From: an uncultured Thermoplasmata archaeon | Lineage (GTDB): Archaea; Thermoplasmatota; Thermoplasmata; RBG-16-68-12 | Assembly: GCA_963768855.1 (NCBI GenBank) | Contig: CAVYJM010000005.1 | Location: 1 to 15,490 of the forward strand | Length of the DNA: 15,490 nt | Direction: 5' to 3' | Shown here: one piece after another, positions 1,074-15,490 of the stretch | Numbering within the stretch: the stretch's first letter is position 1 | Layout: each line of letters opens with the position of its first letter | Position numbers and translations under genes: made by a program | The notes under the pieces: model-generated | The model's input: only the letters and a program-made list of their open reading frames with translations | What the model was told of the DNA's origin: nothing | The model's database searches: none

Positions 1074-1079
1074 CCCGCC

Positions 1080-1278: not shown

Positions 1279-1938
1279 TCACGGACTCATCGGAACGAGG
1301 ATCCCCGCTCCCCGCGGCCGGAGCAGCCCCCAGCCGGCACGGATGAAGTGGACGCCCGTGTAGCCCATGACGATGTGCATCGTCAGGGTCAGGATCACGG
1401 CACCGACCTGGACCAGGCTCCCGCCTCCGAACGGGTCGCCGCAGTTGCTGCCCGTGCAGCCCCCTTGATTGTTCCCGCCGTTGTTGCCCCCGCCGACAGG
1501 TCCCGCGTTCCCGCTCGCGTTCGAGGGGATCTGGATCGTGGTCTCGGCGCGGTTCGTGAGCTGGTCCGCATCCCGGACGGTCAGGGAGATCGTGTACGTC
1601 CCAGCCTGCACGTACGTGTAGGGCGAGATCGACTGGCCATACCCGACGCCGCGTCCGTCCCCGGCGTTCCAGGTCCAATTCACGATCACCGCGCCGCCGG
1701 ACTGGGAGAGGTCCTTCACAGACAGCGTGGAACCACTCGTCTGCCAGCTGAACGCGGCGGTGGGCCCGCTCGCCTGCGACCCGACCGGAACCGCCTGGCT
1801 GCCCTGCGGGCGGAGGAAGCTGTTCGGGTTCGTCGCGATTGAGATGAAGCTGTAGACCGTGAACACGACGAGCGCGATGCCGAGGACCAGCACGACGATC
1901 CCGAGGATGAGGGAGAGGGTGTCCCGGTCGCGTTTCAT
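1279..1938 (-). CDS. PKD-domain membrane protein with N- and C-terminal hydrophobic anchors (219 aa)
   Basis: N-terminal TM LILGIVVLVLGIALVVFTVYSFI. PKD signature PTAAFSW...WTWNAGDG...YTYVQAGTYTISLTVRD. Gly/Asn-rich linker, then C-terminal TM LVQVGAVILTLTMHIVMGYTG. An AT-rich box lies upstream. Confidence 0.85.
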   Translation of the reverse strand: MKRDRDTLSLILGIVVLVLGIALVVFTVYSFISIATNPNSFLRPQGSQAVPVGSQASGPTAAFSWQTSGSTLSVKDLSQSGGAVIVNWTWNAGDGRGVGYGQSISPYTYVQAGTYTISLTVRDADQLTNRAETTIQIPSNASGNAGPVGGGNNGGNNQGGCTGSNCGDPFGGGSLVQVGAVILTLTMHIVMGYTGVHFIRAGWGLLRPRGAGILVPMSP

Positions 1939-1970
1939 GATCCCGTCGCCGTCCCCGTTCGCCTGAGACC

Positions 1971-1978
1971 TATATTAA
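1971..1978 (-). promoter_or_regulatory. Archaeal-type TATA box TTAATATA for the PKD gene
   Basis: An isolated AT-only octamer in GC-rich DNA, 32 nt upstream of ATG 1938. Confidence 0.65.
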
Positions 1979-2077
1979 CCCGGGAGGGCGGATTCGCAGG
2001 GTGATAACAGGAACCCGCGGGGGCGTACGGCCTTGGGCGTCCTGGAACGCGATCCCCGCGATAAGAGCGCAGATTCC

Positions 2078-2084
2078 TTCAAGT
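2078..2084 (+). promoter_or_regulatory. Putative weak TATA-like box TTCAAGT for 2119..2556
   Basis: Lies about 35 nt upstream of ATG 2119. The same TTCAAG core occurs on the minus strand upstream of 10857. Non-consensus. Confidence 0.3.
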
Positions 2085-2118
2085 CCCCCCTGGGCCCTTC
2101 CCCCGGGGAGGGAATCGC

Positions 2119-2556
2119 ATGGAACCCCCAGCCCCCTCGTGGGACCCCGTCCACCAGTCCAGAGAGCTGAACGCCTGGCAGCGGCACCAGGAGGCGAGCC
2201 TCACCCTCTCCGGGGCGGCCCTCGCCCTCGTCAACGCGCTCCTGGCCTTCGAGGTCCTGAGCGTGAACGAGGACACGAACACGTTCCTCGTCCTCGGCGC
2301 GCTGAACCTCGCGATGATCCTGAGCTGGGTGATCATCGCGCGCCGCGCGGCCGCGCGCACGGCGCGCTGGGCGATGAAGGCGCGGCGGATCGAGCGGGAG
2401 ATTCTGCGCGTCCCGGACCGGCTCTCCCTGTGGAACGAGGCGCCGGAGGGCGGCCTCCCCGCGTGGATCGCGGTCGGCGGGGTACTCGTCGGCTTCGCGG
2501 TCCTGTGGGTCGGGCTCATGGGATACGCGTTCTGGGTCACGTACCTGCACGGGTAG
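2119..2556 (+). CDS. Small membrane protein with 3 predicted TM helices (145 aa), function unknown
   Basis: Hydrophobic segments ASLTLSGAALALVNALLAFEVL, TFLVLGALNLAMILSWVIIA and WIAVGGVLVGFAVLWVGLMGYAFW, with a basic amphipathic helix between TM2 and TM3. Strongly G/C-ending codons; GGGGAGGGA upstream. Confidence 0.8.
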   Translation: MEPPAPSWDPVHQSRELNAWQRHQEASLTLSGAALALVNALLAFEVLSVNEDTNTFLVLGALNLAMILSWVIIARRAAARTARWAMKARRIEREILRVPDRLSLWNEAPEGGLPAWIAVGGVLVGFAVLWVGLMGYAFWVTYLHG

Positions 2557-2614
2557 CGGCCTCCCCGGGACCGCCCTCGAGGCCGGCTCTGACGGGCGTC
2601 TCGTTCGCTGGACA

Positions 2615-2653
2615 GGGGCACAATGGGCCCAGCATTTCCTTAGGCCCTGCCCC
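2615..2653. other. Stem-loop (11 bp with a 4-nt bulge) between convergent genes; possible terminator or RNA element
   Basis: GGGGCA(2615-20) pairs with TGCCCC(2648-53); bulge CAAT; GGGCC(2625-29) pairs with GGCCC(2643-47); 13-nt loop. No U-tract. Confidence 0.35.
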
Positions 2654-2861
2654 GATGCCTTGCTGACCTGGCCGTTCGACCCTCAGGTGACCGGACGGAT
2701 CGCAGCGATTGTGCTCGCCGGGATCGTGGTCATCCTGCGGCGGGCGGCTGTGCATGTGTTCCCAGGTCGGTCACCTCGCCCGGCGGCCTTCCCGAGATTC
2801 TCAGCGGACACTCACCTGGAAGGGAATGCATGGAGGATGCAAGGCTCGCGGGCGAGGCGGT

Positions 2862-4112
2862 TTAGGGACGTTCGGCGGAGCGGGCCGCGAGGACCTTCTC
2901 GATGAAGTCGAGCTGGGTGGGGATGTACCCAGCCACGAGGGTCCGGGCCTTCATGCCCGCTGCCTCGCGAACACGCGTCCGCAACACCGGGTCGGCGAGG
3001 AGCTTCCGGATGGCCTCCGCCAGGCCCTCGGGCTCACCTGCCTTCACGAACAAGATGTCGATGCCGTCAACGAACTGGTCCGGCAGGGAGCCGACCGGTG
3101 TCGCGATCACCGGGACCCCTGCAAGCATCGCCTCGTACACGACGGTCGGACTCCCCTCCGTGTACGAGGGGAGGAGCAGGAGGTCCGTCGACGCGAGGAG
3201 CGCGGGGACGTCGTCATGCGGGACGGGTCCGCGGATCGAGACCCGGGGCGCGAGGGAGCGCCGCGCGATTTCCGCCCGGAGCTCAGACTCCTGGCTTCCG
3301 CCTCCCACGTACTCGAGTCCGATCCGGGGCGAGCCGGAGCGCGGGAGCCGCTCCATCGCGTCGAGTATGTCGAAGATTCCCTTCTCGCGCTCGAGGCGGC
3401 CAAGGTAGCGGACCATCCAGGATGCCCGATCTCGCTGGCCGGACTCGCCGACCGCGCGGGGTGGGAACCGTCCGGCGTCCACGAAGGAGGTCGATGTCTC
3501 GATGAGCTTGGCCCCGCCCTCTCGGGCCGAGGAGGCAAGAGCGCGGTTCACCGCCAGGACGCCGTCCGCGGCTCGGAACACCCGCCCCTCAAGCCACCGC
3601 ACGGCATGGCGCGTTGCTCCGGCCGCGGTCGACCCCCGTAGCTTCTGACCAACGGTCTCCTCGATGGACCCGGCGAGGAACACGAAGACCGGGATCCCTG
3701 TGAGCTTGCCAGCGACGACGGTCGGGAGGCCGGTGACGACCGTGTCGTCCGCGCGGAGGATGTCGACGCGATCGCGGCGGAGGGCCCGCAGGAGCGCCAG
3801 GTACAAGGCCGCCATTTCGAAGCCCATGCGAAGCGGACGGTCCAGACGGTTCACTCCTCGCGGGAGAGGGATGCGGTGCAGGCGCAGCTCCTTCGAGGCG
3901 ACCGAGGCCTCATGGAGGGCGACCCCGTGCGGCGCGAAGACGAATACGTCGACGCTCCTGAGGTTCTCGATCAGCCGTCGTGCCTCATCGAGGACGACGC
4001 CTGGGAACGAACCAGACGGCGAGATCGAGCTCGTGCCGGCGATGCCCAGCGCGCGCCCGCGGGCCCGCGACTCCAGCCGGTTTCGCTCGGAAGGATCGGG
4101 TGGGGACGCCGT
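2862..4112 (-). CDS. GT4 (GT-B fold) glycosyltransferase, ~416 aa; start codon non-canonical or uncertain
   Basis: The C-terminal domain has YLGRLEREKG and LPSYTEGSPTVVYEAMLAG (EX7E). The track starts it at GTG 3854, but the frame is open to 4235 and encodes a GT4-like first strand and helix upstream (RALGIAGTSSISPSGSFPGVVLDEARRLIENLRSVDVFVFAPHG) with no ATG/GTG/TTG. The start is placed provisionally at an in-frame ACG (4112), 4 nt after GGGGGTGA. Confidence 0.85.
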   Translation of the reverse strand, partial: TASPPDPSERNRLESRARGRALGIAGTSSISPSGSFPGVVLDEARRLIENLRSVDVFVFAPHGVALHEASVASKELRLHRIPLPRGVNRLDRPLRMGFEMAALYLALLRALRRDRVDILRADDTVVTGLPTVVAGKLTGIPVFVFLAGSIEETVGQKLRGSTAAGATRHAVRWLEGRVFRAADGVLAVNRALASSAREGGAKLIETSTSFVDAGRFPPRAVGESGQRDRASWMVRYLGRLEREKGIFDILDAMERLPRSGSPRIGLEYVGGGSQESELRAEIARRSLAPRVSIRGPVPHDDVPALLASTDLLLLPSYTEGSPTVVYEAMLAGVPVIATPVGSLPDQFVDGIDILFVKAGEPEGLAEAIRKLLADPVLRTRVREAAGMKARTLVAGYIPTQLDFIEKVLAARSAERP

Positions 4113-4116
4113 GGTC

Positions 4117-5352
4117 TCACCCCCCGGCGTTGCGCGGCGCGGCCCGGACGGTCTCGTATGCGCCCGCGGCGACCTTCGCGATCCGGGACCAGGAGTACTC
4201 CCGCGCGAGGAAGGCGAGCCCGTTCGACGCTCTTCTCATCCGGAGCGTCTCGTCCGTGAGCAGGCTACGAAGCGTGGCCGCAATCTCCTTCGGATCGTCG
4301 CGGACGCAGCGCCCCATGTCCTCCCGAGCCAGGTCCTCGGCCCACGAGCCCGATCCGGTCGCGACGACCGGCAAGCCCGCCGCAAGATAGTCGTACATCT
4401 TCCCGGGGACGGCGTAGGTGCGTGAGGCGGAGTCCGCCCAGGGTACGATCCCGACGTGGCAGGTGGCCAGGAACCGGAAATACTCCGTGTCGGTGGGGAA
4501 CCAGAAGAATTCGAGACGTACCCCCCGCTCGTGGGCGAGGCGCCGCAGCCGGCGGCGTCCGGGTCCGCGGCCCGTTGCGAGCAGCACGGTCTCAATGCCG
4601 CTCCCCCGGAGGAGGGCGCAGGCGTCGAGGAACGGTTCGAGCCGCACCCATGAGGTGACGATGCCCGAGTACACGAGCCGGAAGGGAGGCGGCGGCGACG
4701 AAGGGCCGGAGACCCGGGCCGTCGCCCCGGTCGGGACGACCCAGGTCCGCGTGTGGTCGGCGCCGAGTTGCTCGACAAAGTAGTCGCGCATCTCCCGGTC
4801 CGGTACGAGGATGCCGTCGGCGTCCGCCGCGATCCGCGCGTCGAGGTCGCGGGCTTGGTGCTCCACCGCCGATCCGGCAGAGGCCAGCCCGTCCTCCACG
4901 AGCTCGGCGGCCCAGACGTTGTGCAGGTCCGCCACGACCGGCATCCCGAGCTCCTGCTTCACGGAGCACGCTGCCGCGGCGGCCACCTGCTGCTCGGCTT
5001 GGAGGAGGTCGAGGTGCAACCCGCCCGCGCGGGCAACGACCTTGCGTGCCAGCCCCTGGATCTCGGCTTGGAGCCGCGCCGGATTCCGAAGGGCGAGGCG
5101 GCGCACCGACTTCCACCGGTAGAACGCATCGACCGCGATGCGCCGCGCGGTGCTCGAGACCCGCTGTCCGGGGGAGGTCGCGAGGGATGCGAACTCCCCC
5201 GAATCCCACCACGCGGGTCGGCCCGGGTAGGGGGAAAGGAGGACGGAGTCCACGGAGTTCGTTCGCAGGCCCCGCGCGAGGCCCACCACCCGCTTCGTCG
5301 TCCCCAGGCTCTGACCCGGCGGATGCGTTGTGAGAATCCCGATCCGGGTCAT
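4117..5352 (-). CDS. GT4 glycosyltransferase, WbuB-like subtype (411 aa)
   Basis: N-terminal MTRIGILTTHPPGQSLGTTKRVVGLARGL and VVADLHN. The C-terminal AVPGKMYDYLAAGLPVV is the P-x-K-x-x-E/D-Y variant replacing canonical EX7E. SD GGCGGTGA lies 6 nt before the ATG. Confidence 0.9.
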   Translation of the reverse strand: MTRIGILTTHPPGQSLGTTKRVVGLARGLRTNSVDSVLLSPYPGRPAWWDSGEFASLATSPGQRVSSTARRIAVDAFYRWKSVRRLALRNPARLQAEIQGLARKVVARAGGLHLDLLQAEQQVAAAAACSVKQELGMPVVADLHNVWAAELVEDGLASAGSAVEHQARDLDARIAADADGILVPDREMRDYFVEQLGADHTRTWVVPTGATARVSGPSSPPPPFRLVYSGIVTSWVRLEPFLDACALLRGSGIETVLLATGRGPGRRRLRRLAHERGVRLEFFWFPTDTEYFRFLATCHVGIVPWADSASRTYAVPGKMYDYLAAGLPVVATGSGSWAEDLAREDMGRCVRDDPKEIAATLRSLLTDETLRMRRASNGLAFLAREYSWSRIAKVAAGAYETVRAAPRNAGG

Positions 5353-5403
5353 GACTTGTCACCGCCGTCCCCGGCGAGCCGCGGCGCCAGCATTCCCCAT
5401 TGG

Positions 5404-5409
5404 TTTAAG
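5404..5409 (-). promoter_or_regulatory. TATA-like box CTTAAA for the GT4 pair 5352->2862
   Basis: Isolated AT patch about 50 nt upstream of ATG 5352, in the short gap after the methyltransferase stop. Confidence 0.5.
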
Positions 5410-5428
5410 CGTATCGCTCGACGGCGCC

Positions 5429-6283
5429 TCATGGGTTCGAGGCGGCATCCCGGAGGCGGGCGATGACCATCACGTTCTGGCTCGCATCCGGCACGCGGAT
5501 GAATCGTTCGTCGAGGCGTGCCTGGATCCTCGCGCACCACGACGCAAGCCAGCCGATGCCCCGCCAGCGCGCGACGACCTCGAGCTCGGAGAGATAGGGC
5601 AGTGAGAAGCCCACGCCATGGACCGTCTCCACCTCGAACCCGTGCGATCGCAAGGTCTCAACCAGGTACGTCGTCGTGTAGAGCCGGTGCGGGACGTTCC
5701 CGTGATAGAGCCGGTAGTCGTAGTATCGCAGGCCCCGGGCCTTGGCGACTCCGATCGCGAGGTAGAACGGCAGGAGCGGTATCTCCGACCATCGCGCGGC
5801 TCGCTGGGCCGCCTTCACCACGCGCCGGGCATGGCGGGGCTCGCGTTTCGCCCACCTCTGGACCCGCTCCGAACCGAGCGCGAGGATGAACGGGGGATAG
5901 CGGAGTGCGGGGACCGTGATGATGTAGCGCCGCGCGGCGAGACGTTCCAGTTCGGAGAGCGCCTTCGCTTCGTCCGGGACGTGCTCCACGACCTCCGTCG
6001 CGACGACCGTGTCGATCGCGTGCGCTCGCAACGGGAGATGTTCCGCGTCCGCTTGCAGGAGGCCCACGGACTCGGATGGCACGGTCGCGCGATCGATCCG
6101 CCGGAGTTTCGTGCGGTTCAGGTCGCAGCCGACGATCCGCTCGAACCGGGCGGAGGAACCGGCCATCTCGCGTTCGAGGTTCCCCTCCCCGCATCCGAGA
6201 TCGAGGAGGCTCCGCGCCCCGAGTTGGTCCAACGCCCTCAGGATAGCGGCATACCGTCTCCGGTGCGTCTCCTCGAGGAGCAT
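5429..6283 (-). CDS. Class I SAM-dependent methyltransferase (Methyltransf_11-like, ~284 aa)
   Basis: Motif I LLDLGCGEG, VGCDLN, LQADAEHLPL, DTVVATEVVEHVPD and IITVP. The track ORF (to 6877) overlaps the divergent GT4 gene, so the start is set at ATG 6283, about 40 nt downstream of AATTAAG. ATG 6376 is an alternative. Confidence 0.88.
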   Translation of the reverse strand: MLLEETHRRRYAAILRALDQLGARSLLDLGCGEGNLEREMAGSSARFERIVGCDLNRTKLRRIDRATVPSESVGLLQADAEHLPLRAHAIDTVVATEVVEHVPDEAKALSELERLAARRYIITVPALRYPPFILALGSERVQRWAKREPRHARRVVKAAQRAARWSEIPLLPFYLAIGVAKARGLRYYDYRLYHGNVPHRLYTTTYLVETLRSHGFEVETVHGVGFSLPYLSELEVVARWRGIGWLASWCARIQARLDERFIRVPDASQNVMVIARLRDAASNP

Positions 6284-6320
6284 CGTCGCGTGCGTCGGCT
6301 CGCAGTCGTCCACGTAGGAG

Positions 6321-6329
6321 CGCTTAATT
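6321..6329 (-). promoter_or_regulatory. TATA-like box AATTAAGCG for the methyltransferase
   Basis: The only AT patch in the divergent gap, about 40 nt upstream of ATG 6283. The TTAATT core could also be read on the plus strand. Confidence 0.45.
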
Positions 6330-6448
6330 CGGTCCGCTTCGGCGGATCGCGGGGGAGGAAGCAGCAAGGAGTGCATCCGAGAGCCGCGTTCCCGGAATGA
6401 ACATTGCGGCACCGCCAACGGTCCCCGGCTCCCATGGAGGCCGGGGGC

Positions 6449-6460
6449 GAAACCTCTATG
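6449..6460 (+). promoter_or_regulatory. Putative BRE/TATA-like element GAAACCTCTATG
   Basis: Ends 27 nt before ATG 6488, similar spacing to CTTTATG before ATG 11366. This would give a leaderless transcript. Confidence 0.35.
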
Positions 6461-6487
6461 CCGGGCATGGGGGTTCCGTGCGCGTTC

Positions 6488-7675
6488 ATGCCCGAGGATG
6501 CAACCGACCTGCTGGCCTTCGTGTCCAGCTTCTCCCACTTCGCCGGGCCGAACAACCCCGTCCTCGACCTGGGGAACCATCTGGTCTCGGCGATGGGGGT
6601 CCGGTTCGCCGTCGTCACGACGCGCAACCCGGTGGACCCGGAGTTCGCGCGGCGCGTGAGGTTCCCCGTGTACCGCGACCTCTCCGGTACCTCGAGCTCC
6701 ATGGGTGGACGCCTGCTCCGCGGTCCCACGAACGTCCATCGTGCGAGGGCTTCCCTGGCTCAACACCGGCCCAGGCGGACAATCGTCTTCTCGAGCCTGG
6801 ACACCGCGTTCGAGGTGTCGCGAGCGGCGCGAGGTCCCGTCCTCCTGGGGTACAACGTCCTCGGCAACATCCCCCACGGGTCGTGGGGGCGGCGATTCGG
6901 TCTACGGTATTGGCGTCCGGCGAGCTGGCGCAACCCGGTGTACGAGGGTCTCGACCGCCTCGCTGCACGAACCGTCGTCTCGGGCATCCTCGCGCACAGC
7001 CGCTACCAGGAGAGCCTGTACCGAGCGATGGGGATCCCTGCCGAACGGATCCGCGTCGTGCCCCACACCATCGACTTCGCGCGGCTGGATGCGGAGGCGG
7101 CCACTGCTCCCCCGGGTCCGTCGTCCTCCGACGAAGGCCGGCCGACCGTCCTCTTCATCGGACGGCTCGAGCCCGACAAGGGCGTCGTTGAGTTGCTGCG
7201 AGCCGCCGAGCTCGCCTCGAGGGAGGTGCCGCTCACGTTGCAGATCATCGGCACGGGCCGGCTCGCCCGCGCGGTCGCCGAGGCCCGGGCGCGTGCGCCC
7301 TCCACGCTCCGGGTCGAGACGTCGCACGACGTTCCCGTGACGGAGCTCCTGGGGCGGATTCGAGCTGCCGCCGTCGTCGTGATGCCCTCCTGGGTCGAGT
7401 TGTTCGGGATGGTCGCCCTCGAGGCGATGGGGCTCGGGAGGCCCTTGATGGCTTCCCGCCACGGTGGGGTCTCCGAGATCATCCGGGACGGCGTGGACGG
7501 GTTGCTCATCGAGCCGTTCGACACGGACGGGTTCGCGGCGTCCCTGCGTAGGGTGCTTGGAGACCCCGCGCTGCGCGAGCGACTCGGAAACCGAGCTCGA
7601 GAGCGGGTCGCGGCGGAGTACGAAGTCCATGTCGTGGCCCCCCGGTTCCTTCGGGCCTTGGAGGAATTGGCGTGA
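6488..7675 (+). CDS. GT4 glycosyltransferase (~395 aa)
   Basis: VLFIGRLEPDKG, MPSWVELFGMVALEAMGLG (EX7E) and HGGVSEIIRDGVDGLL. Start trimmed from 6404 to ATG 6488 (MPEDATDLLAFVSSF...), which directly precedes the first beta-strand. The stop overlaps the next GTG (GTGA). Confidence 0.9.
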   Translation: MPEDATDLLAFVSSFSHFAGPNNPVLDLGNHLVSAMGVRFAVVTTRNPVDPEFARRVRFPVYRDLSGTSSSMGGRLLRGPTNVHRARASLAQHRPRRTIVFSSLDTAFEVSRAARGPVLLGYNVLGNIPHGSWGRRFGLRYWRPASWRNPVYEGLDRLAARTVVSGILAHSRYQESLYRAMGIPAERIRVVPHTIDFARLDAEAATAPPGPSSSDEGRPTVLFIGRLEPDKGVVELLRAAELASREVPLTLQIIGTGRLARAVAEARARAPSTLRVETSHDVPVTELLGRIRAAAVVVMPSWVELFGMVALEAMGLGRPLMASRHGGVSEIIRDGVDGLLIEPFDTDGFAASLRRVLGDPALRERLGNRARERVAAEYEVHVVAPRFLRALEELA

Positions 7676-9690
7676 AGCCCCTGCGGCCGGAGGCGGTGAC
7701 CGCCGCGCTGAGTCTGGCGGTGTGCCTCGCCTTCCTCGGCTCGCTGGCCACCCCAGGCTTCGGAATTGTCCGCGCCCTCGCAGGGGCGCTGATCCTCACG
7801 TACCTCTCGGGTCTCTCGATCCGAGCGTTCCTCCGAGTCGCCTTCCCGCCGAAGGTATCTCGCCCCCTGTGGACTCCCGCGGGGATCGCCTTGGACTTCA
7901 TCACGAGCTTCGCGCTCCTGGTCATCCTGTCCATGGCGCTCGCCCTCACTTTCCTCTTCTGGGCGTCCACGCTGACCGGCCTGGTCGTCGCTCCCTGTAT
8001 GGCGCTCGATGTCGGGACGATCGTGTGCTCGAGGCTCCGTCCTGCGGCGACCTCGACGCACCGGCCTTCTCGCGGAATACCCGTTGCGGTCGCGGCCCTC
8101 GTCGGCGCCTCGGGAATCCTTTTCGTCCTGTTCCGGTGGCCCAACCCGTACCCGTCGATCAGCGGGTGGGACCTGAACCCGGCTCTGGCCTCGGTCGGCT
8201 GGACCCTCAATCATCACGGGTTTGGCTTCGTCCTCTGGCCTCCGTTCCCCGCTTCGGCGCTCGTCCCGTACCCCGCCTCCTTCAACGACTTCATCGCGGG
8301 CTACAGCCTCGTCCTCGGAGTCGACCCTCTCTCCATCTTCTACTACGGCGTCCTCGTACTGCTCCTAGCCTACAGTCTCGGCTTCTTCGCGATCGCGTAC
8401 CGCCTTTCGAGCCGCGTGGATTCCGCGCTTCTCGCGACCTTGGCGATCCTGTATATAGGGACCGCCCTCCCGGAGACGGTCCGGACCCCGCTCTTCGTCA
8501 CGATCGACATGCTCGGCCAGCTCGTCTTCCTCGGCCTCTTCCTCTTCTTCCTTGACGATGAGGGGAGCCTGGGCCGGCGCCGCGCGATCCTCCTGCTCGG
8601 CTCCGTGTTCCTCGTGTACTGGTACTTCTACGAGCTCGTCGTAGTGACCCCGTTCCTCGCGTTCATGCTGGGCGGCTCGTTGCGGTCGGCCCACGCCCAG
8701 CGTCCGGTCCGTTGGTTCCGGGGGACCCTGGTGATCGTCCTCCTCGGGGTCGTCGGCGTCTCACTCGCCGCGACGGTGTTCGTGCCGTCCCTGGAAGCAA
8801 ACCTGTCCGCGGGCTTCCAGTTCGTGCCCAAGGTCTTCGCCCTCGTGGTGATGTACTCACCCGTCGCGCTCGTCCTTGGGTTCCTCGTCGTGTTCAATCG
8901 AGCGCACGTCCCGGAGGACCCCCCGGTGAGGGGATTCCGCGCACGGTACCTCCTCGAGTACGTTTGCGTGTACCTGATCATCTACCTGCTACCCCTCTCG
9001 GCGACCTACCGAGTCGAGTTCTACCTCCGGGCCGCCTTGGCGTTCTACCTCGCCTCGCTCCGCTTTCCCACGACGCGGGAAATGCGCGAAGCGTTCCGCG
9101 CGGTCCGCGCTCTGCTCGCGCGGCGGCGGGCCCCCCGTCCGTGGCACCCTCTTGCGCTCCAGCGTCTCGCGGCGCTCGCGGTACTCGCACTCGTGGTGTT
9201 CATGGCGGTCCTCCTGCCGTTCCAGGTCACTCAGCCGGAGCCCCACATGTCCGTGGACGAGTACCACGCCTCGGTCTGGATTCGGGACCACACCCCGGCG
9301 GACGCGTACATCGTGACGGATCCCGGGACCGGGTACGTCATCCGCGGTTTGTCGCTGCGCAATGCGTCGCTCTCCTTCCTGCTTCCGGATGGACGCGCCC
9401 CCGATGATTCGTCTCCCCTGTATTCTTACTTGCGGACGTCTCTGCACTCCATTTTCGATTCCTACTTCACCGCGCAGGCCCAGGCCCAGATCCTCGTCCT
9501 CGACTTCCCGCACGTCTACGTTGTGATCAGCACGCGGACGGTCCTCTGGGCGAGCACTCCGGCCGTATCCATCTTCGACCATCCGATCCCGGACCTGTCC
9601 CCCGCGAGCCTCCTGCCGGTCTTCGCGCCCCCCGCGTTCCAGCCCCTCTTCGTGTCGCCGACGGTGGTCGTCCTGAGCGTCAGCACGTGA
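7672..9690 (+). CDS. Polytopic membrane protein (672 aa), GT-C fold / STT3-AglB-like architecture
   Basis: About 15 hydrophobic segments. The first large loop has SGWD (8161-8172) followed by YPASFNDFIAGYSLVLGVDP. The soluble C-terminal domain begins DEYHASVWIRDHTPADAYIVTDPGTGYVI, which aligns with the AglB 'AL.WLR.NTP.DA.V.SWWDYG.WI' region but lacks WWDYG. SD GGAGG at 7660-7664; GTGA coupling to the upstream GT4. Confidence 0.8.
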   Translation: MKPLRPEAVTAALSLAVCLAFLGSLATPGFGIVRALAGALILTYLSGLSIRAFLRVAFPPKVSRPLWTPAGIALDFITSFALLVILSMALALTFLFWASTLTGLVVAPCMALDVGTIVCSRLRPAATSTHRPSRGIPVAVAALVGASGILFVLFRWPNPYPSISGWDLNPALASVGWTLNHHGFGFVLWPPFPASALVPYPASFNDFIAGYSLVLGVDPLSIFYYGVLVLLLAYSLGFFAIAYRLSSRVDSALLATLAILYIGTALPETVRTPLFVTIDMLGQLVFLGLFLFFLDDEGSLGRRRAILLLGSVFLVYWYFYELVVVTPFLAFMLGGSLRSAHAQRPVRWFRGTLVIVLLGVVGVSLAATVFVPSLEANLSAGFQFVPKVFALVVMYSPVALVLGFLVVFNRAHVPEDPPVRGFRARYLLEYVCVYLIIYLLPLSATYRVEFYLRAALAFYLASLRFPTTREMREAFRAVRALLARRRAPRPWHPLALQRLAALAVLALVVFMAVLLPFQVTQPEPHMSVDEYHASVWIRDHTPADAYIVTDPGTGYVIRGLSLRNASLSFLLPDGRAPDDSSPLYSYLRTSLHSIFDSYFTAQAQAQILVLDFPHVYVVISTRTVLWASTPAVSIFDHPIPDLSPASLLPVFAPPAFQPLFVSPTVVVLSVST

Positions 9691-9726
9691 CGGACCCGAA
9701 CCGCATCGCGCGGGCCCGAGGCCGGT

Positions 9727-10857
9727 TCACACGAGGTTCTCGTACAGGTTCTCGGTCAGCTGCCCGATGCGCGCCCAGCTGTACGAATCCTCGATGAGGC
9801 GGCGTCCCGCGGCACCCATCCGGCGCCTCATCCCTTCGTCCCTGAGGAGGGCGACGACCCTCTCGGCGAACGCGGCGAAGTCGTGGGCGGGGCGCAGGAA
9901 TCCGGTCTTGCCCTCGATGACGACCTCGGACGTCCCCCCCGTGTCCGCGGCGACCACCGGGACGCCGCAGGCCAGGGCCTCGAGGCACACGGTCGGCAGT
10001 CCCTCGATGAACGACGGGAGGACGAGGACGGAGGTCGATCGGAGAATGTCCGCCACGCGGCTGTGTTCGACCTCGCCGATGAACCGCACGTTGCCGTTGA
10101 GGTCCGCCGCGGCGGCCCGCATTCCACCCAGCATCGAGCCCGTCCCGACGACCTGAAAGATCGCTTCGGGAACCTCGCGCCGCACGAGGCGCGCGATGTC
10201 GAGGAAGGAGCCTGCGCCCTTCCACTGCTCGAGCCGGCCCACGTACGTGACGACGGGTGGGTCCGGCGCGTCTCCGTCGCGGGGCCGGAATTCCTCCGGA
10301 TCCACCGCGTTCGGAATCAGGTGGAGCTTGTCCTCTTCCACGTCGAAGACCTCGCGGCACTGCCGCAGGTCGAACTCGGAGACCGCCGCGATCGCGTCCG
10401 CGCTCTCGATCGTCCAGCGGCCGAGGGTGCGGTCGTAGAGCTTCTCCTTGAGGTAGAGCGCCGACGAGGTCTTGCGGTCCATCTCGGCGTATCGCGAGTA
10501 GGTCGCGCCGTGGATGTGGAGGACGAACGGTCTGCCCGTGATGCGGGATACGAGGGCGGCCTGGTTCGAAGTCGTGTAGACGTACGAATGCGCGTGCAGA
10601 ACGTCCGCGTCGCTCTTGGCCAGCTCACGCGTCAGGAACGTGAGCGGGTTGACGCCGAACATCAGGCCGTAGCAGCGGGTGGTGTGGATCGGAATGTGGT
10701 CGCCCATGAACTTGCGGTGGCCGTTCGGCGGGAAGTTCGGAGCGTAGAAATCGACGTCGTGGCCCCGCTTCTCGAGTTCGACCGCGAGGTTCGAGGAGTA
10801 GACCACCGAGCCGCCCGGCCGCTCGGGAAGGAACGGGGCGATTTGGGCGATTTTCAT
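9727..10857 (-). CDS. GT4 glycosyltransferase (376 aa)
   Basis: MKIAQIAPFLPERPGGSVVYSSNLAVELEKRGHDV, DVLHAHS, IPNAVD, YVGRLEQWKG and LPSFIEGLPTVCLEALACGVPVV (EX7E). Confidence 0.95.
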   Translation of the reverse strand: MKIAQIAPFLPERPGGSVVYSSNLAVELEKRGHDVDFYAPNFPPNGHRKFMGDHIPIHTTRCYGLMFGVNPLTFLTRELAKSDADVLHAHSYVYTTSNQAALVSRITGRPFVLHIHGATYSRYAEMDRKTSSALYLKEKLYDRTLGRWTIESADAIAAVSEFDLRQCREVFDVEEDKLHLIPNAVDPEEFRPRDGDAPDPPVVTYVGRLEQWKGAGSFLDIARLVRREVPEAIFQVVGTGSMLGGMRAAAADLNGNVRFIGEVEHSRVADILRSTSVLVLPSFIEGLPTVCLEALACGVPVVAADTGGTSEVVIEGKTGFLRPAHDFAAFAERVVALLRDEGMRRRMGAAGRRLIEDSYSWARIGQLTENLYENLV

Positions 10858-10924
10858 GGTGTGCCTTCTGGGGCCGATGGGGGCCTCGGACGGAGTTCAC
10901 GTGGGACTAGCGTGCGCCGAAGCG

Positions 10925-10937
10925 AACCTTGAAGGTT
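10925..10937. promoter_or_regulatory. Perfect inverted repeat AACCTT-G-AAGGTT, putative operator overlapping a TTCAAG box
   Basis: 6-bp arms with a 1-nt spacer, about 70 nt upstream of ATG 10857 on the minus strand. Confidence 0.4.
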
Positions 10938-11330
10938 GCAGGTCTGAACCCCAGTGTGCGGCACGACGGTAGCACCCCTCACTGTATTATGCATTCAAGT
11001 ACCCCCTAATAAGCCCTCGGATGTGGTATTGGGACCTCCGATTACGCGGGGTTATCTAAGAGTTTCTTGAACAATTATCGAACCAAGCGGATTTTTCTTG
11101 GCGATATCCGGTTTCGAGCCACTCGGAAGAAGACGACACCGGGTCGGAGGTCCCGGCCCGTGTCGACGAGGTCGGGCGAACCACCTGACCGCGATCGCGG
11201 AGTTCCGCTTCGAGGCGGCCTTTCGGGACGCTTCCGATCCGCACGGCCTTACGCTGATCTCGATCCCCGCGGGCACCTTAGGAACGATGTATCGCTGGCG
11301 CGCCGTGTAACGGCGGAATCGCGCCGCGAG

Positions 11331-11337
11331 CTTTATG
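11331..11337 (+). promoter_or_regulatory. TATA-like box CTTTATG for the ABC operon
   Basis: Ends 28 nt before ATG 11366; GGAGG also lies at 11353-11357. Confidence 0.5.
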
Positions 11338-11365
11338 GCGGGACCGCCCTTTGGAGGCCGCGCCC

Positions 11366-12304
11366 ATGATCGAGGTCCGGGGACTCACGAAGGTCTATAC
11401 CCGCGGGCGCGGGCAGGGCGCCAAGGCCTTGGACGGCGCGACCTTCACGGTCCCCGACAAGAGCATCTTCGGGTTCCTCGGGCCGAACGGCGCGGGGAAG
11501 ACGACGACGATCCGGATCCTGGCCACGATCCTCGAGCCGACCGAGGGCACCGCGACGGTCGAGGGCCACGACGTGCGCACGGATCCGCTCGCGGTCAAGG
11601 GCGCGATCGGCTACATGCCCGAATACCCCGGCTACTATCCCACGATGACCGCGGAGGAGCACCTCGATTACTGGGGCCGGTTCTACCACATGCCGAAGGC
11701 GGAACGGGCGAAGCGAGGCAAGGAGCTCCTCGACCTCGTCGGCCTGGGCCAGGAGCGCGCGAAGAAGGTGAAGGCCTACAGCCACGGGATGCTCAAACGC
11801 CTCGGCCTGGCGCAGGCGCTCCTTCATGACCCGCGCGTCCTGATCCTGGACGAACCCGCGGGCGGGCTCGACCCGTACGGGATCATCTTCTTCCGCAAGC
11901 TGATGAAGGACCTGAATCGCGAGGGGAAGACGATCCTCCTCGCCTCCCACATCCTCTCCGAGGTCGCCCAGACCTGCACCCACGTCGGCGTGATCGACAA
12001 GGGGAAGATCGTCGCGGTCGACACGACCGAGGCGCTCCTGTCCCGCATCGGCGGCGGAGGCGTGCGCTGCCTGATCGAGGCGCCGAGCGTCCCGGACGCG
12101 GCCCTGCGCGGCCTCCTCGACATCAGCCACGTGAAGGATGTGGTTCGCACGGACTGGGGCCTCATCGTCACGATGGACAAGGACGCCCGGGCCGCGGTCA
12201 ATGCGTTCCTCGTCGGCCTCGGCGTGCCCGTGGTGGGCGTGAAGCTCGCGGAGGTCACGCTCGAAGACGCCTTCCTCTCGCTCACGGGAGGCGGGCCGAC
12301 GTGA
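11366..12304 (+). CDS. ABC-2-type exporter ATP-binding subunit (~312 aa)
   Basis: Walker A GPNGAGKT, signature YSHGM, Walker B ILDE, H-loop ASH, and a C-terminal extension ending LEDAFLSLT typical of ABC-2/DrrA-like NBDs. Start trimmed from TTG 11351 to ATG 11366 (MIEVRGLTK). Confidence 0.95.
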   Translation: MIEVRGLTKVYTRGRGQGAKALDGATFTVPDKSIFGFLGPNGAGKTTTIRILATILEPTEGTATVEGHDVRTDPLAVKGAIGYMPEYPGYYPTMTAEEHLDYWGRFYHMPKAERAKRGKELLDLVGLGQERAKKVKAYSHGMLKRLGLAQALLHDPRVLILDEPAGGLDPYGIIFFRKLMKDLNREGKTILLASHILSEVAQTCTHVGVIDKGKIVAVDTTEALLSRIGGGGVRCLIEAPSVPDAALRGLLDISHVKDVVRTDWGLIVTMDKDARAAVNAFLVGLGVPVVGVKLAEVTLEDAFLSLTGGGPT

Positions 12305-13734
12305 GCTTCGACCCGCGGGACGTGTTCCGCGGATCGCTCATCGTCGCGGGGCGCGACCTGCGCTCGAACGCGCGCGGGCTCAAGGTCTGGATCATCTCGG
12401 GGCTCACCCTCCTGGCGATCCTCGGAGCGGCGTTCGGGATCGGCGGGCTCACGTCACAGGGACCGTCCATCGCCACCCAGTACATCCTCTGGGGGTCGGC
12501 CTACTGGACCGCGAACAACTCCACGACAGGCATCGTGGTCTGGGTCAGCGACTACCTCGGGTCACCCCGGGCCGGGCAGACCGTCGTGTTGGGGGAGCCG
12601 TTCTCGCTGGGGCAGTTCAATTCGACCTTCGTCGAACGCGCCATGATCGCGACGAACGCAACGGGATGGGCCCAGTTTTCGAACCTGACCGCGGGAAAAG
12701 TCTGGCCCGTGCGGATCACCGCGGGCGTCCTGACCTTCACCGACGGCTTCGTGATCCCGTCCCAGCGACCCACACAGAACCTGTCCGTGACGGTCAAACG
12801 GTTCGATCTCCTCGGGGACGGAGCCGCGCGGGACGTGAGCATCCACGCCATGTGGGCAAACGGGACACCCGCAGAGGGTGCGCAGGTGGCGGTCAACGGG
12901 ACCGCCGTCGGCACAACGGACCGCAATGGATTCCTCTACCACCGACTCGACGACGGGACGTGGGGACTCACGGTCGCCCTCCGCGGGGAGACCTTCCCTG
13001 ATACCGAGGTGGTCCAGCGGTCCCCGCTCGCGATCCTCCCGTTCTTCCAGGGGCCGGACGCGCTCTTGCTGTTCTTGGGGGTCGCGCTGATGGGCCTGTT
13101 CGCGCCGATCATCGCGATCGCCATGTCCTACGACGCGGTCGCAAAGGAGCGGATGCAGGGCAGCCTTGAGCTCCTCCTCGCGCGCCCCGCCTCCCGAGCG
13201 GGAATCGCGATCGGGAAGTTCATCGGGTCGTTCCTCTCCGTCGGACTCCCGATGCTCGGCGTCCTGCTCGGAGCCGTGGTCGGCGTCGCGGGGGTTTCGG
13301 GGAGGTGGCCCGACGTGGTCTTCGTCGCCGCCTTCGTCGTCGGGACCCTGGGCCTGATCGCGGTCTACGTGCTCATCATGCAGATCTTCTCGACCCTCGC
13401 AAAGTCCGCGGGCACGGCGATCCTCTCAGCCCTCGTCGTCTGGATCGTGTTCAACATCGTGTGGAACCTCGTGTTCCTCGCGGTGGAGTCGGCCTTCCGG
13501 ATCGAGGGCGGGACGCCTGCGGCCTTCACGCTCAGCACGATCACGACCCTGTTCAACCCGAACGGCGTGTACCAGCTCATGGTCACCACGTTCGTGCCCG
13601 CGTCCGCGCTGGGGCTCTTCGGCACGACGGGAGGTGGGAGCCTGCCGGACTGGGCCGGACCGGTCGCCATGGTCGTCTGGATTGCCGTCCTGCTCGTCCT
13701 CGCCGTCCTCGTGTTCCGCAAGCGGATCGTCTGA
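12301..13734 (+). CDS. ABC-2-type permease (NosY/ABC2_membrane_2-like) with a ~190-aa extracellular beta-rich insertion (477 aa)
   Basis: TM1, a large loop, then SYDAVAKERMQGSLELLLARPASRAGIAIGKFIG (the classic ABC-2 permease motif) and 5 further TMs. GTGA overlap with the ATPase stop. Confidence 0.9.
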   Translation: MSFDPRDVFRGSLIVAGRDLRSNARGLKVWIISGLTLLAILGAAFGIGGLTSQGPSIATQYILWGSAYWTANNSTTGIVVWVSDYLGSPRAGQTVVLGEPFSLGQFNSTFVERAMIATNATGWAQFSNLTAGKVWPVRITAGVLTFTDGFVIPSQRPTQNLSVTVKRFDLLGDGAARDVSIHAMWANGTPAEGAQVAVNGTAVGTTDRNGFLYHRLDDGTWGLTVALRGETFPDTEVVQRSPLAILPFFQGPDALLLFLGVALMGLFAPIIAIAMSYDAVAKERMQGSLELLLARPASRAGIAIGKFIGSFLSVGLPMLGVLLGAVVGVAGVSGRWPDVVFVAAFVVGTLGLIAVYVLIMQIFSTLAKSAGTAILSALVVWIVFNIVWNLVFLAVESAFRIEGGTPAAFTLSTITTLFNPNGVYQLMVTTFVPASALGLFGTTGGGSLPDWAGPVAMVVWIAVLLVLAVLVFRKRIV

Positions 13735-13790
13735 GCGACCGCCCGGACCGATGTCGGCCGTCCGACTTCGAGATTCGGGCCTGAATTGGG

Positions 13791-13810
13791 ATTACTATCT
13801 TAATAGTATT
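13791..13810. promoter_or_regulatory. AT-rich inverted repeat TACTAT-CTTA-ATAGTA, putative operator/TATA region for the GT2 gene
   Basis: Perfect 6-bp arms (13793-98 and 13803-08) inside a 20-nt nearly AT-only island. Confidence 0.45.
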
Positions 13811-13853
13811 CTGCCGATTATGGACCTATCGCTTCGTGAAGCGTACAATGACC

Positions 13854-13860
13854 CTTAAGA
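13854..13860 (+). promoter_or_regulatory. Second TATA-like box CTTAAGA upstream of the GT2 gene
   Basis: Lies about 47 nt before ATG 13907 but only about 20 nt before GTG 13880. Confidence 0.35.
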
Positions 13861-13879
13861 AGCACGGAGGCGCAAGTCG

Positions 13880-15490
13880 GTGTACCAGGAGACCCCGCGA
13901 TTGACGATGGAAGGCCGTTCTGTCGCGCAGCGCCGCTTTGCCAACCGCTTCTTCGTGCTGGTGCTCGCTATATGGATCGGCGCCGTTGCCATCTTCGCCG
14001 GCACGACGGTGAACTTCCGCTCCTGGATCAGCGTCCTCCAGTTCGGGCTGATGGTGTTCTTCCTGTTCAGCTTCGCAATCGTGTTCTCGAAGCGCGTCGT
14101 CTCCCTGTTCGTGAAGCCGTACCCGCTCCCCAAGCTCGACTCCCTCGCGAGGCAGCCGCGCGTCGCCCTCCTCTACACGACCATGAACGACGTTGTCCCG
14201 GACTGCGTGGAGGCGATTCGCCAGACGTACCCGGTGGACGTCTACATGCTGGATGACTCCTCGGACCCGTACAAGCGGGCCACCGTCGACGACCTGGCGC
14301 GCAAGCACGCGTTCCGGATCCTCCGCCGCCCCGAGCGCAAGGGGTTCAAGGCGGGCGCAATCAACGGCTGGCTCCGGCAGTTCGGCGTGCAATACGACTA
14401 CTTCGTCCTCCTGGACGCGGACTCGATCCTCCCGCCCGACTGGGTCGCGGAGGCATTGAAGTACGCGGAGCATCCGGAGAACCGGGACCTCGCGATCTTC
14501 CAGGGCCTCATCAACATCTGGAACACGGACCGCCCGTTCCCCCGCGCGCTCGCTGCGACGACCCTCCTCGGCCAGGACGAGTGGGAGCGTCGGGTCAGCG
14601 GTTACGTGGGCGCGGTGTTCTGCTACGGGCACAACGTCATGCTGCGCACGAAGCCGGTCCTAGAGATCGGTGGGTTCGTCGAGGACTACGTGTCCGAGGA
14701 CTTCGCGACGGCCGTGAAGCTCGCGTCGGCGGGCCACGGCTCCGTGTTCGTGCCCCTCCACACCTGGGAGGCCATGCCCGAGAACGTCCGCGGGTTCGTG
14801 AAGCGGCAGACGAAGTGGACGCGCGGGTCGATGGAGTTCTGGTCGTTCGTGCCCCCGGCCCGGCTGCCGTGGCGGAAGAAGGTCTTCCTCTACACGACCC
14901 CGATGAATCACGTGGCCTACATCACGATCATGTTCGCGATGGTCGCGGCCGTATTCGGCCGCGTCTCGACGCCCGGGGCGTTCTTCGCGTTCGGCCAGAA
15001 CCTCCTCGTCGCGCCGATCGCGTACATCTGGTCGATCAACCTCTTCCGCTTCATCATCGTCATGTCCCTCATCACGTCCGTCTTCACGGTCGCGAAGCTC
15101 GTCCAGGTGCGGCTGGGCTTCTGGCGGTACTACCGCGCCCGGACCCTGAGCAAGGCGATTGGGGCGATCATGCTCCCCCACGAGCTCCGGGCGATGCTCA
15201 TGTACCTCGTCGACCCGCGGAGGAAGTTCCCCGTGACGCCCAAGGACGAGCCGCCGATGACGATGCGGGAGATCCTCCACGTCGGCCGCGGGACCGTCGC
15301 GCTCGTCGCGGTCATGGCGGTCGGCCTCACGATGTGGAACCCCGTCGGGCTGTGGTACAACGCCCTCTGGTTCCTGTCGTTCATCACCGCCCCCTTCGTC
15401 CTCTACTACTACTGCGGCCCGCTGACCCGGCCCGCGACCGCGGCGGGCGAGGGCTCGCGCGATCTGCTTGCGGACCCGAGGATCCGGACG
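13880..15490 (+). CDS. Processive membrane GT2 glycosyltransferase, cellulose synthase (BcsA)/OpgH-like, 3'-truncated by the window edge
   Basis: Manually translated; absent from the track, open for 537 codons to the window end. Two N-terminal TMs, then LLYTTMND, VYMLDDS, RKGFKAGAIN, LDADS (14411-14425), YGHN, SED (14693-14701), KRQTKWTRG (14801-14827), further TMs and FPVTPK (15227-15244). Start is GTG 13880 (SD GGAGG 13866-70) or ATG 13907. Confidence 0.92.
   Translation, partial: MYQETPRLTMEGRSVAQRRFANRFFVLVLAIWIGAVAIFAGTTVNFRSWISVLQFGLMVFFLFSFAIVFSKRVVSLFVKPYPLPKLDSLARQPRVALLYTTMNDVVPDCVEAIRQTYPVDVYMLDDSSDPYKRATVDDLARKHAFRILRRPERKGFKAGAINGWLRQFGVQYDYFVLLDADSILPPDWVAEALKYAEHPENRDLAIFQGLINIWNTDRPFPRALAATTLLGQDEWERRVSGYVGAVFCYGHNVMLRTKPVLEIGGFVEDYVSEDFATAVKLASAGHGSVFVPLHTWEAMPENVRGFVKRQTKWTRGSMEFWSFVPPARLPWRKKVFLYTTPMNHVAYITIMFAMVAAVFGRVSTPGAFFAFGQNLLVAPIAYIWSINLFRFIIVMSLITSVFTVAKLVQVRLGFWRYYRARTLSKAIGAIMLPHELRAMLMYLVDPRRKFPVTPKDEPPMTMREILHVGRGTVALVAVMAVGLTMWNPVGLWYNALWFLSFITAPFVLYYYCGPLTRPATAAGEGSRDLLADPRIRT

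Follow-up and report, generated by a model that had tools for sequence, protein, structure and literature searches.

A replaceable candidate surface-glycan cassette in an uncultured Thermoplasmata archaeon encodes a predicted STT3/AglB-like GT-C protein of an undescribed family

In oligosaccharyltransferases (OSTs), the WWD of the WWDYG motif is the pocket for the +2 Ser/Thr of the N-X-S/T sequon, and the role of the DXD motif is described in the same work (PMC3703281). The Agl15 pathway of Haloferax performs AglB-independent N-glycosylation with an OST that is unidentified and a glycan that ends in rhamnose, and the enzymes of archaeal O-glycosylation are still unidentified (PMC8241124). Here we describe a locus of an uncultured Thermoplasmata archaeon that encodes four glycosyltransferases (GTs) of family GT4, an S-adenosylmethionine (SAM) methyltransferase and a 672-amino-acid (aa) membrane protein, P0001, with a predicted fold of the GT-C class nearest to STT3/AglB/PglB. 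The stretch analysed (the window) is a whole 15,490-bp contig (CAVYJM010000005.1, hereafter C5) of a metagenome-assembled genome (MAG) of 2.87 Mb in 24 contigs.

Coding frames were picked by the guanine-plus-cytosine (GC) content of third codon positions (0.84-0.95 in the nine genes considered here) and then scanned with Pfam and NCBIfam. The nine are the four GT4s (GT4a to GT4d), the methyltransferase, P0001, an ABC/ABC-2 transporter pair and a BcsA-like GT2 (Table 1). An earlier note on this DNA had placed and typed all of them correctly, as judged by the frames with the highest third-position GC, the domain scans and the predicted structures.

P0001 matched no Pfam or NCBIfam family. An exhaustive HMMER search of 1.84 billion representatives returned 61 cluster representatives at E <= 1e-3. 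None of 36 full-length members of this family matched a Pfam model; the STT3 (PF02516) and AglB_core-like (PF22627) models were unmatched by P0001 and these 36 members at E <= 0.01, and by nine members at E <= 10. A profile of the 36 sequences found nothing among PDB sequences. The AlphaFold2 model, built from the 36-sequence alignment (predicted local distance difference test, pLDDT, 87.5; predicted template modelling score, pTM, 0.90), has a GT-C fold: all of the 29 best PDB matches in Foldseek are GT-C enzymes (E 2e-7 to 4e-5), with yeast and human STT3, DPY19, PglB, AftA and AglB at the top. In the model, about 125 N-terminal residues form four extra transmembrane (TM) helices, an 11-TM core begins at about residue 128, and an alpha/beta domain of OST type covers residues ~525-672. 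Within the family, conservation is highest in this C-terminal domain. Searched alone, its listed structural matches are the OST C-domains of PglB, AfAglB-S1 and AfAglB-S2, and it superposes on those of PglB and AfAglB-S2 with a root-mean-square deviation of 2.6-3.0 Å. On this model, P0001 joins a GT-C TM core to an OST-type C-terminal domain, and its fold is predicted to be nearest to that of STT3/AglB/PglB. We also considered the four N-terminal helices as a GtrA-like flippase module, a candidate dropped for want of a GtrA Pfam match; their atlas scores, below 0.9, point toward the N-termini of DUF6541 and DUF6077 proteins.

Seven residues are invariant across the family (D167, R447, E449, R453, W536, D550 and S566), and the charged residues outside persist in members with only 16% identity. 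D167 is part of a GWD motif in external loop 1 (EL1), 12 residues past the first TM helix of the core and on the side free of Lys and Arg, while in the model R447 and E449 sit where a late TM helix emerges on the outside. Positive-inside analysis of the modelled helices places D167, R447-x-E449 and the C-domain outside. The protein shows the multi-pass fold and the acidic residue in the first extracytoplasmic loop that characterise the GT-C superfamily. Two DXD motifs were not found in the outside loops: EL1 has the single invariant Asp (GWD167), and the acid of EL2 (E268) is present in only part of the family.

WWDYG is absent from P0001. At its place in the model, a strand, loop and helix read YIVT-DPGTG-YVIRG (TDPGTG, residues 549-554), and the same place in the genome's own AglB reads SVVA-WWDYG-FEIT. 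The form TDPx[ST]G occurs in nearly all family members that have the C-domain. With the published numbering of the PglB motif (457-461), the VIA ranges (529 on 436) also put D550 on the first Trp. Two further observations concern this domain. An N-x-S tripeptide lies at residues 564-566 (window 9361-9369), with N564 nearly invariant and S566 invariant in the family, usually as RN[ACS]S; it may be a sequon kept for N-glycosylation or else a motif with a structural or catalytic role. Residues 533-552 gave repeated sub-threshold matches to DUF6798 (E 0.055-0.28), which we take as a lead only.

The canonical AglB is encoded elsewhere in the genome. The single STT3 gene lies on contig C11 (179473-185991, minus strand; L071 74-6592), and its 2172-aa product matches both the PF02516 and PF22627 profiles. 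It contains STT3, AglB_core-like and WWDYG, followed by repeats of the SdrD_B and CarboxypepD_reg types and, at the C-terminus, a TM anchor. Of 41 genomes of the order, 38 have an STT3 match, and in most of these it lies in an open frame of ~2160-2190 aa, so that a giant AglB appears to be an order-wide trait. The earlier description of P0001 as a WWDYG-less AglB-like GT-C, distinct from a true AglB to be located elsewhere, is thus apt as a description of its predicted structure; membership of STT3 as defined by sequence fails. Domain scans also bore out that the window holds no flippase, nucleotide-sugar enzyme or STT3 gene. An AglH-like and a Wzx-like gene are present on C6 and a weaker Wzx-like match on C3, two PMT_2 GT-Cs are encoded on C11 and C18, and nucleotide-sugar enzymes are likewise encoded elsewhere in the genome.

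The absence of the WWDYG and DXD motifs could also mean that P0001 is a degenerate, non-catalytic relative of AglB (a scaffold or pseudo-enzyme). However, the outside charges that stay invariant to 16% identity and the conserved motif that replaces WWDYG argue for selection on an active site. We consider it hardly credible that P0001 is such a protein or that the cassette described below is mis-binned foreign DNA.

Relatives' neighbourhoods, gathered by identity look-up and a metagenome scan, were used to establish which genes travel with the GT-C. A GT4c orthologue lies just upstream of the GT-C in at least 12 loci (every informative relative), often overlapping its start, with one exception to the adjacency in which a small methyltransferase stands between. 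Identities to GT4c are 60% (L066), 53% (L002), 50% (L065), 37% (L019), 36% (L067), 34% (L068) and 33% (L018 and L023), and they track those of the GT-C (GT4c/GT-C in %: 60/64, 53/44, 37/34, 33/35 and 33/33). In the window, the GT4c stop overlaps the GT-C start by 4 nt and the two genes appear to be translationally coupled. A complex prediction for GT4c and the TM part of the GT-C scored 0.00, which speaks neither for nor against binding. L020, a distant relative, has the operon pattern of the 24-35% relatives described below, but its GT4 before the GT-C (8062-10000) is broken into three short calls (267, 240 and 128 aa), possibly a frameshifted or decaying GT4c.

In the clade with 43-44% GT-C identity (L002-5, L062-65 and L069-70), the methyltransferase is encoded on the minus strand, GT4c runs into the GT-C on the plus strand, and GT4d follows on the minus strand. 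All four dTDP-rhamnose genes precede the cassette in L003, and an RmlB-like gene is present in all loci that reach far enough. The relatives with 24-35% GT-C identity (L018, L019, L022, L023, L067 and L068; GC 38-46%) have the operon order small GT2, GT4, methyltransferase, GT4, GT4c-like gene and GT-C. GT4d orthologues adjoin the GT-C in L016 (93%), L002 and L062 (60%), L019 (37%) and L018 (34%), and the methyltransferase is 49-52% identical to the one beside the GT-C in L002 and L062-L065, so that a GT4d-like gene and usually a methyltransferase accompany GT4c and the GT-C in relatives. Genes resembling GT4b orthologues were found in L018 and L067 (27% identity), and no clear GT4a orthologue was found beside the distant GT-C relatives. 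Because the core synteny is kept in relatives with 24-35% identity, the clustering is not due to chance, and the gene order supports a reading of the GT4s, the methyltransferase and the GT-C as one functional neighbourhood. The gene-neighbourhood comparison proposed in the earlier note therefore favours co-conservation of GT4c, GT-C, GT4d and the methyltransferase, but not of the ABC-2 pair and the GT2.

Comparison of C5 with the rest of the MAG by BLASTN showed that positions 1-2546 correspond to C15 18678-16130 (95%), positions 11316-15490 to C15 4337-166 (92.6%) and positions 11324-15490 to C3 1-4164 (93.3%), and that 2547-11315 has no counterpart elsewhere in the MAG. On C15 the same flanks enclose a different cassette of 11.8 kb (L036 4337-16130). 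This encodes an epimerase, a GT2, a GT4, a DUF2079 GT-C (3e-61), a fusion of GT2 with a GtrA/DPMS TM part and a sugar C-methyltransferase, together with two open reading frames (ORFs) without a Pfam family (12221-13474 and 13458-14498) in a stretch of 54-58% GC. Two haplotypes of the region are present in the MAG, one represented by C3 and C15, which overlap at 99% identity (C3 1-4329 on C15 4329-1), and the other by C5; the contamination of the MAG (7.7%; completeness 93.6%) is consistent with this. A third arrangement is found in a genome of the same genus (G013), with a subtilase, an epimerase, a GT2, an 818-aa membrane ORF, a GT4d orthologue (79% identity) that adjoins the ABC genes, and the ABC-ABC2-GT2 series. 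The 818-aa ORF (L042, contig G013:C199, 8540-10996, minus strand) has no Pfam match, lies at the position of the GT-C and weakly matches the P0001 profile (5.7e-5). In the L002 lineage, a P0001-type cassette (44% identity) stands beside genes homologous (62%) to those of the NUDIX region downstream of the GT2 on C3, thus the same chromosomal region hosts a P0001-type cassette in another Thermoplasmata lineage.

The ends of C5, C3 and C15 coincide with borders of the variable stretch, and in same-genus genomes five of six orthologous permease genes (at least 53% identity) lie at contig ends. No flanking repeats, integrase or tRNA were found at the cassette borders. On this comparison, the co-inherited unit appears to be 2547-11315, a strain-variable surface-glycan cassette, and we propose that the cell surface is diversified through the exchange of whole cassettes among haplotypes that live side by side. 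The earlier note had taken 2862-15490 as one system; 2547-11315 does behave as a unit, but 11316-15490 is conserved flank.

Mis-binning of the cassette would fit the contamination of the MAG, the short stand-alone contig and the distribution of the GT-C. Searches of 40 close relatives (24 genomes of the genus and 16 of the order) and of 400 genomes of the phylum gave no P0001 orthologue, the sole match among the 400 being distant (5.9e-18), and a scan of genome contigs with P0001-family patterns found no relative. Against this stand the composition of C5, which fits the MAG (GC 0.676 vs 0.63-0.67; tetranucleotide r = 0.99), the 93-95% identity of both flanks to C15 and C3, and the 44%-identical cassette beside the NUDIX-region homologues. 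The GC of ~68% and the basic proteins indicate that the organism is no halophile. Seven wetland DNA metagenome runs contain at most 0.29 of the sampled words of the sequence, and no RNA run is among those listed as containing it. In Logan contigs, a 3.6-kb contig from a relative spans the methyltransferase, GT4c and GT-C and the rest are short pieces; depth spikes on the ABC Walker region, shared by many organisms; and the joints are weak (21-letter sides), one skipping 2355-11367. We did not use these Logan observations as evidence.

The ABC, ABC-2 and GT2 genes have a different distribution. They stay beside the different cassette in the other haplotype, and beyond this genus neither the ABC-2 pair nor the large GT2 is ever found next to the GT-C. 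The gene order ABC-ABC2-GT2-VWA is kept only within the genus; many Thermoplasmata, Ca. Sysuiplasma among them, have a GT2 orthologue (42-72% identity) with no ABC gene beside it. The ABC-2 pair and the GT2 thus appear to be conserved neighbours with an independent evolutionary history, outside the cassette. The permease belongs to PF12679 (NosY/GldF-like, weakly GldF-like), with no match to the Wzm family (PF01061) among the matches listed, and the ATPase is covered end to end by DrrA/GldA-type models, with no Wzt_C domain among those listed. The pair therefore lacks the marks of a Wzm/Wzt-type glycan ABC exporter, and nothing in the sequences appears to tie this transporter to glycans.

The same evidence bears on the proposal that the cassette, an ABC-2 exporter and a GT2 synthase work together as a two-arm pathway, in one variant of which ABC-2 would export the methyl-capped glycan, as in ABC-dependent O-antigen and S-layer pathways, beside a synthase-made polymer. 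The genes are adjacent on C5, GT4d adjoins the ABC genes in G013 too, no Wzx gene lies within the cassette, and methyl caps are typical of ABC-dependent glycan pathways. Apart from the cassette, strong divergence between the haplotypes is confined to an outside loop of the permease. These points are outweighed by the persistence of the three flank genes, unchanged, beside a different cassette, by their absence beside the GT-C in every other lineage, by the GT2 orthologues outside the genus that have no ABC pair, and by a permease and ATPase of the wrong families, and we consider joint action of the three very unlikely. The earlier note is thus confirmed in its observation and partly supported in its two-arm interpretation, from which the exporter and the synthase fall away.

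Closer inspection of the permease showed that the haplotypes differ almost only in this loop of ~200 aa (window 12450-13050, residues ~51-250). About 66 of 210 residues differ, nucleotide identity is 76% against 96-99% around it, and seven to eight N-X-S/T sequons, eight of them in the copy on C5, keep their positions between haplotypes. The loop looks like a second, surface-exposed hot spot adjoining the cassette. The GT2 model (pLDDT 75.8) has BcsA as its nearest Foldseek match (7e-16, TM-score 0.56-0.60), followed by cyclic glucan synthase, hyaluronan synthases and CesA, and the motifs KAG, DAD, SED and RQTKWTRG are invariant in 15 orthologues. The NCBIfam CelA match (7e-20) scores 70.6 against a cut-off of 699, the MdoH match is also far below its cut-off, and no PilZ domain was found. 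The GT2 is therefore predicted to be synthase-like, and the earlier term cellulose-synthase-like is a fair description.

We give roughly even standing, for and against, to the explanation that the cassette makes a methylated lipid-linked glycan which the OST-like GT-C hands to a non-sequon acceptor outside. At the cytoplasmic face, an enzyme encoded elsewhere would prime a polyprenyl (dolichyl) phosphate carrier, and the four GT4s would then lengthen the glycan on it with nucleotide sugars as donors; the SAM methyltransferase would O-methylate one sugar, possibly the terminal one. An unlinked flippase, for which there are candidates on C6 and C3, would flip the lipid-linked glycan. Outside, the GT-C would move the glycan from lipid to acceptor through an STT3-like active site with D167 and R447/E449; the fold and residue positions of this step come from the model, and from them we infer the chemistry. 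Since an invariant Asp-Pro-x-Ser/Thr-Gly stands where OSTs have the Trp-Trp-Asp pocket, recognition of the acceptor through an N-X-S/T sequon is improbable. Candidates for the acceptor are a different kind of protein site (O-linked or non-canonical N-linked), a membrane glycolipid and a lipoglycan.

Several results weigh against this explanation. The TM-scores of P0001 to solved OSTs are modest (0.40-0.44). Comparison by hhalign with the genome's own AglB, whole and with the C-domain alone, found no link, and comparison with 27 AglBs of the order was not significant (Prob 2.6%, E 0.018), so that the link of P0001 to OSTs rests on predicted structure. The cassette contains neither a priming enzyme nor a flippase, and its linkage to the genome rests on composition and shared flanks in a strain-mixed MAG. 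In addition, a small PF00535 GT2 (233-320 aa) heads the operon in many relatives and could be a dolichyl-phosphate (Dol-P)-sugar synthase that feeds a single-sugar reaction of the GT-C. The hhalign alignment is collinear, with GWD167 on 'GGSD' of AglB and R447 on 'AARF'; not being significant, it is a lead only.

This operon-head GT2 belongs to the main rival explanation, in which the GT-C is a single-sugar Dol-P-monosaccharide enzyme (AglS, PMT, ArnT or Gtr-type) that decorates an outside glycan or protein, and the GT4s and methyltransferase build a separate part of that glycan. The shape look-alikes of P0001 include PMT_2 clusters, and the alternative cassette on C15 is of exactly this type, with its DUF2079 GT-C and GT2-GtrA fusion. 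However, the window cassette and the L002/L062 clade have no such GT2, the coupling of the GT-C is to a cytoplasmic GT4 and not to a polyprenyl-phosphate GT2, and the OST-type C-domain has been retained as the best conserved part of the family, with OSTs as its listed matches. We hold the single-sugar enzyme to be a somewhat unlikely alternative.

A membrane lipid could also be the acceptor, in which case the cassette would make a Thermoplasmata lipoglycan or glycolipid in the manner of mycobacterial phosphatidylinositol mannoside and lipomannan synthesis. GT4 and GT-C enzymes divide the labour there (PimA/B' and PimE), and many Thermoplasmata carry lipoglycans. An acceptor that is not a peptide would also agree with the loss of the Ser/Thr pocket motif. 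Many Thermoplasmata are without an S-layer (PMC12448462). The OST-type C-domain, retained and strongly conserved, speaks against a lipid acceptor, which appears decidedly unlikely, although this explanation overlaps the transfer to a non-sequon acceptor that we favour, where the acceptor may be protein or lipid.

A more specific version of the favoured explanation, that the P0001 family is a second, AglB-independent class of archaeal OST transferring a methylated glycan en bloc to a non-sequon acceptor, is a tentative and fairly unlikely one. If true, P0001 would be the first candidate for the transferase of archaeal O-glycosylation or of non-canonical N-glycosylation, and P0001 with its dedicated GT4 would form a portable module inside swappable surface-glycan cassettes. 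The family keeps a predicted OST architecture with the sequon-reading motif rewritten, and is genetically tied to a glycan-building GT4, which makes P0001 a concrete, clonable candidate for an alternative transferase. One wetland population also shows complete exchange of glycan cassettes, each version with a different GT-C. Such exchange is familiar from bacterial O-antigen loci; for non-halophilic archaea there are, to our knowledge, few records of it. It is relevant to virus-host dynamics and to the breaks of MAG assemblies at such loci.

Table 1. Features of the 15,490-bp window (C5), with the evidence for each
Feature	Position	Strand	Evidence
Conserved left flank	1..2546		95% identity to C15 18678-16130
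Small ORFs in left flank	3-443, 636-1088, 2119-2556	-, -, +	codon-position GC
PKD-domain protein	1279-1938	-	PKD match
Replaceable candidate glycan cassette	2547..11315		four GT4s, methyltransferase, STT3-like GT-C
GT4a, 330 aa	2862..3854	-	Glycos_transf_1 8e-34
GT4b, 411 aa	4117..5352	-	Glyco_trans_1_4 1e-12, Glyco_trans_4_4
Class I SAM methyltransferase, ~315 aa	5429..6376	-	Methyltransf_11 8.5e-16
Divergent intergenic region between methyltransferase (-) and GT4c (+), presumed promoter region	6377..6487		gene starts in alignments
GT4c, 395 aa from M29 of ORF starting at 6404	6488..7675	+	Glycos_transf_1 4e-29
STT3/AglB-like GT-C P0001 (predicted), 672 aa	7672..9690	+	unnamed family; predicted structure
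GT4d, 376 aa, convergent with GT-C	9727..10857	-	Glycos_transf_1 2e-36, Glyco_transf_4 2e-25
Conserved right flank (ABC, ABC-2, GT2)	11316..15490		92.6-93.3% identity to C15 and C3
ABC ATPase, DrrA/GldA-like	11351..12304	+	ABC_tran 1e-27; drrA 6e-73 and GldA 8e-69, below cut-off
ABC-2 permease (PF12679)	12301..13734	+	ABC2_membrane_2 4.5e-35
Membrane-embedded processive-type GT2 (BcsA/HAS/Cgs-like)	13880..15490	+	Glyco_trans_2_3 4e-20

All four GT4s match Glycos_transf_1 with 40.7-125 bits (Pfam cut-off 26.4), and the EX7E motif was checked in GT4c, where E332 and E340 are invariant in orthologues. The methyltransferase ORF is open to 6877; M168 is the likely true start, as the longer N-terminal part is not conserved. 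Its best NCBIfam matches, Hen1 and the mycofactocin oligosaccharide methyltransferase MftM, are both far below cut-off. The ABC ATPase probably starts at the ATG at 11366, and the GT2 is cut by the contig end ~9 codons before its stop (546 aa in the C3 copy). GT4d and the ABC ATPase gene diverge from a 493-bp spacer that contains an AT-richer stretch (10960-11100), and a TTTATGG box is found ~28 nt upstream of the ATG at 11366; homology between the haplotypes begins at 11316. No Pfam match was found for the small ORFs of the left flank. On C3 (L037 4142-8396), a 664-aa VWA-domain protein overlaps the GT2 stop and is followed by a weak Roadblock/LC7-like ORF, a Ras/Roc-like small GTPase and a NUDIX hydrolase, and the G013 locus holds another Ras-like GTPase. 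Two defence readings were set aside: PADLOC gave only generic methyltransferase and ABC ATPase matches for an anti-virus system, and the GT4-conflict Pfam matches underlie stronger Glycos_transf_1 matches.

The variable glycan islands and the combination of GT4s, methyltransferase and GT-C are of known kinds; the GT-C family is new. Compared with STT3/AglB/PglB (GT66), P0001 shares the following features: the first outside loop contains an acidic residue, the C-terminal alpha/beta domain is predicted to lie outside, and a beta-strand, a loop and a helix occupy the WWDYG position. Unlike these enzymes, it matches neither STT3 nor AglB_core-like in Pfam, shows no profile similarity that reaches significance, carries TDPx[ST]G for WWDYG, lacks DXD pairs, has four extra N-terminal TM helices and a short loop at the EL5 place, and co-exists with a canonical 2172-aa AglB. 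The best whole-length shapes among ESM Atlas cluster models are those of DUF2206 (archaea) and of DUF6077 and DUF6541 (bacteria), with TM-scores of 0.65-0.69 over 557-589 residues, the N-terminal extension included. No P0001-family member reaches their Pfam models even at E = 10. These closest shape matches are uncharacterised too, and none of the papers searched mentions DUF2206. The P0001 family, for which Pfam and NCBIfam have no model, is undescribed.

The Agl pathway of Haloferax volcanii (AglJ/G/I/E, AglP, AglS and AglB) resembles the proposed one in its methylated glycan, built on dolichol phosphate in the cytoplasm, and in its outside membrane enzymes. The Agl15 glycan ends in rhamnose, and relatives of the cassette carry dTDP-rhamnose genes. 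The Haloferax pathways use GT2 enzymes, in contrast to the GT4 enzymes here, and none of the 61 P0001-family representatives has a haloarchaeal (acidic) composition. The methyltransferase has a Methyltransf_11 fold and its gene is co-located with GT genes in relatives; its analogy with AglP comes solely from the shared class I SAM fold.

Hypervariable glycan loci are known as the O-antigen and capsule loci of bacteria and as the cell-surface 'metagenomic islands' of haloarchaea. As in these, complete GT cassettes are exchanged here between conserved flanks in co-existing strains, and assemblies break there; unlike these, each cassette brings an unrelated large membrane protein (P0001, the DUF2079 protein or the 818-aa protein). 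The S-layer O-glycan pathway of Geobacillus stearothermophilus comprises rml genes, rhamnosyltransferases, a methyl cap, Wzm/Wzt and the O-oligosaccharyltransferase WsaB. Nucleotide-sugar GTs, a methyltransferase, a membrane transferase and a nearby ABC-2 transporter are common to both, whereas the transferase here is predicted to be STT3-like, not Wzy_C-like, and the ABC-2 pair is neither of Wzm/Wzt type nor co-conserved with the cassette. Finally, the GT2 of the right flank shares its predicted fold and its catalytic motifs with BcsA, hyaluronan synthase and cyclic glucan synthase, and differs from BcsA as a lineage-conserved Thermoplasmata gene without a PilZ domain or a BcsB partner.

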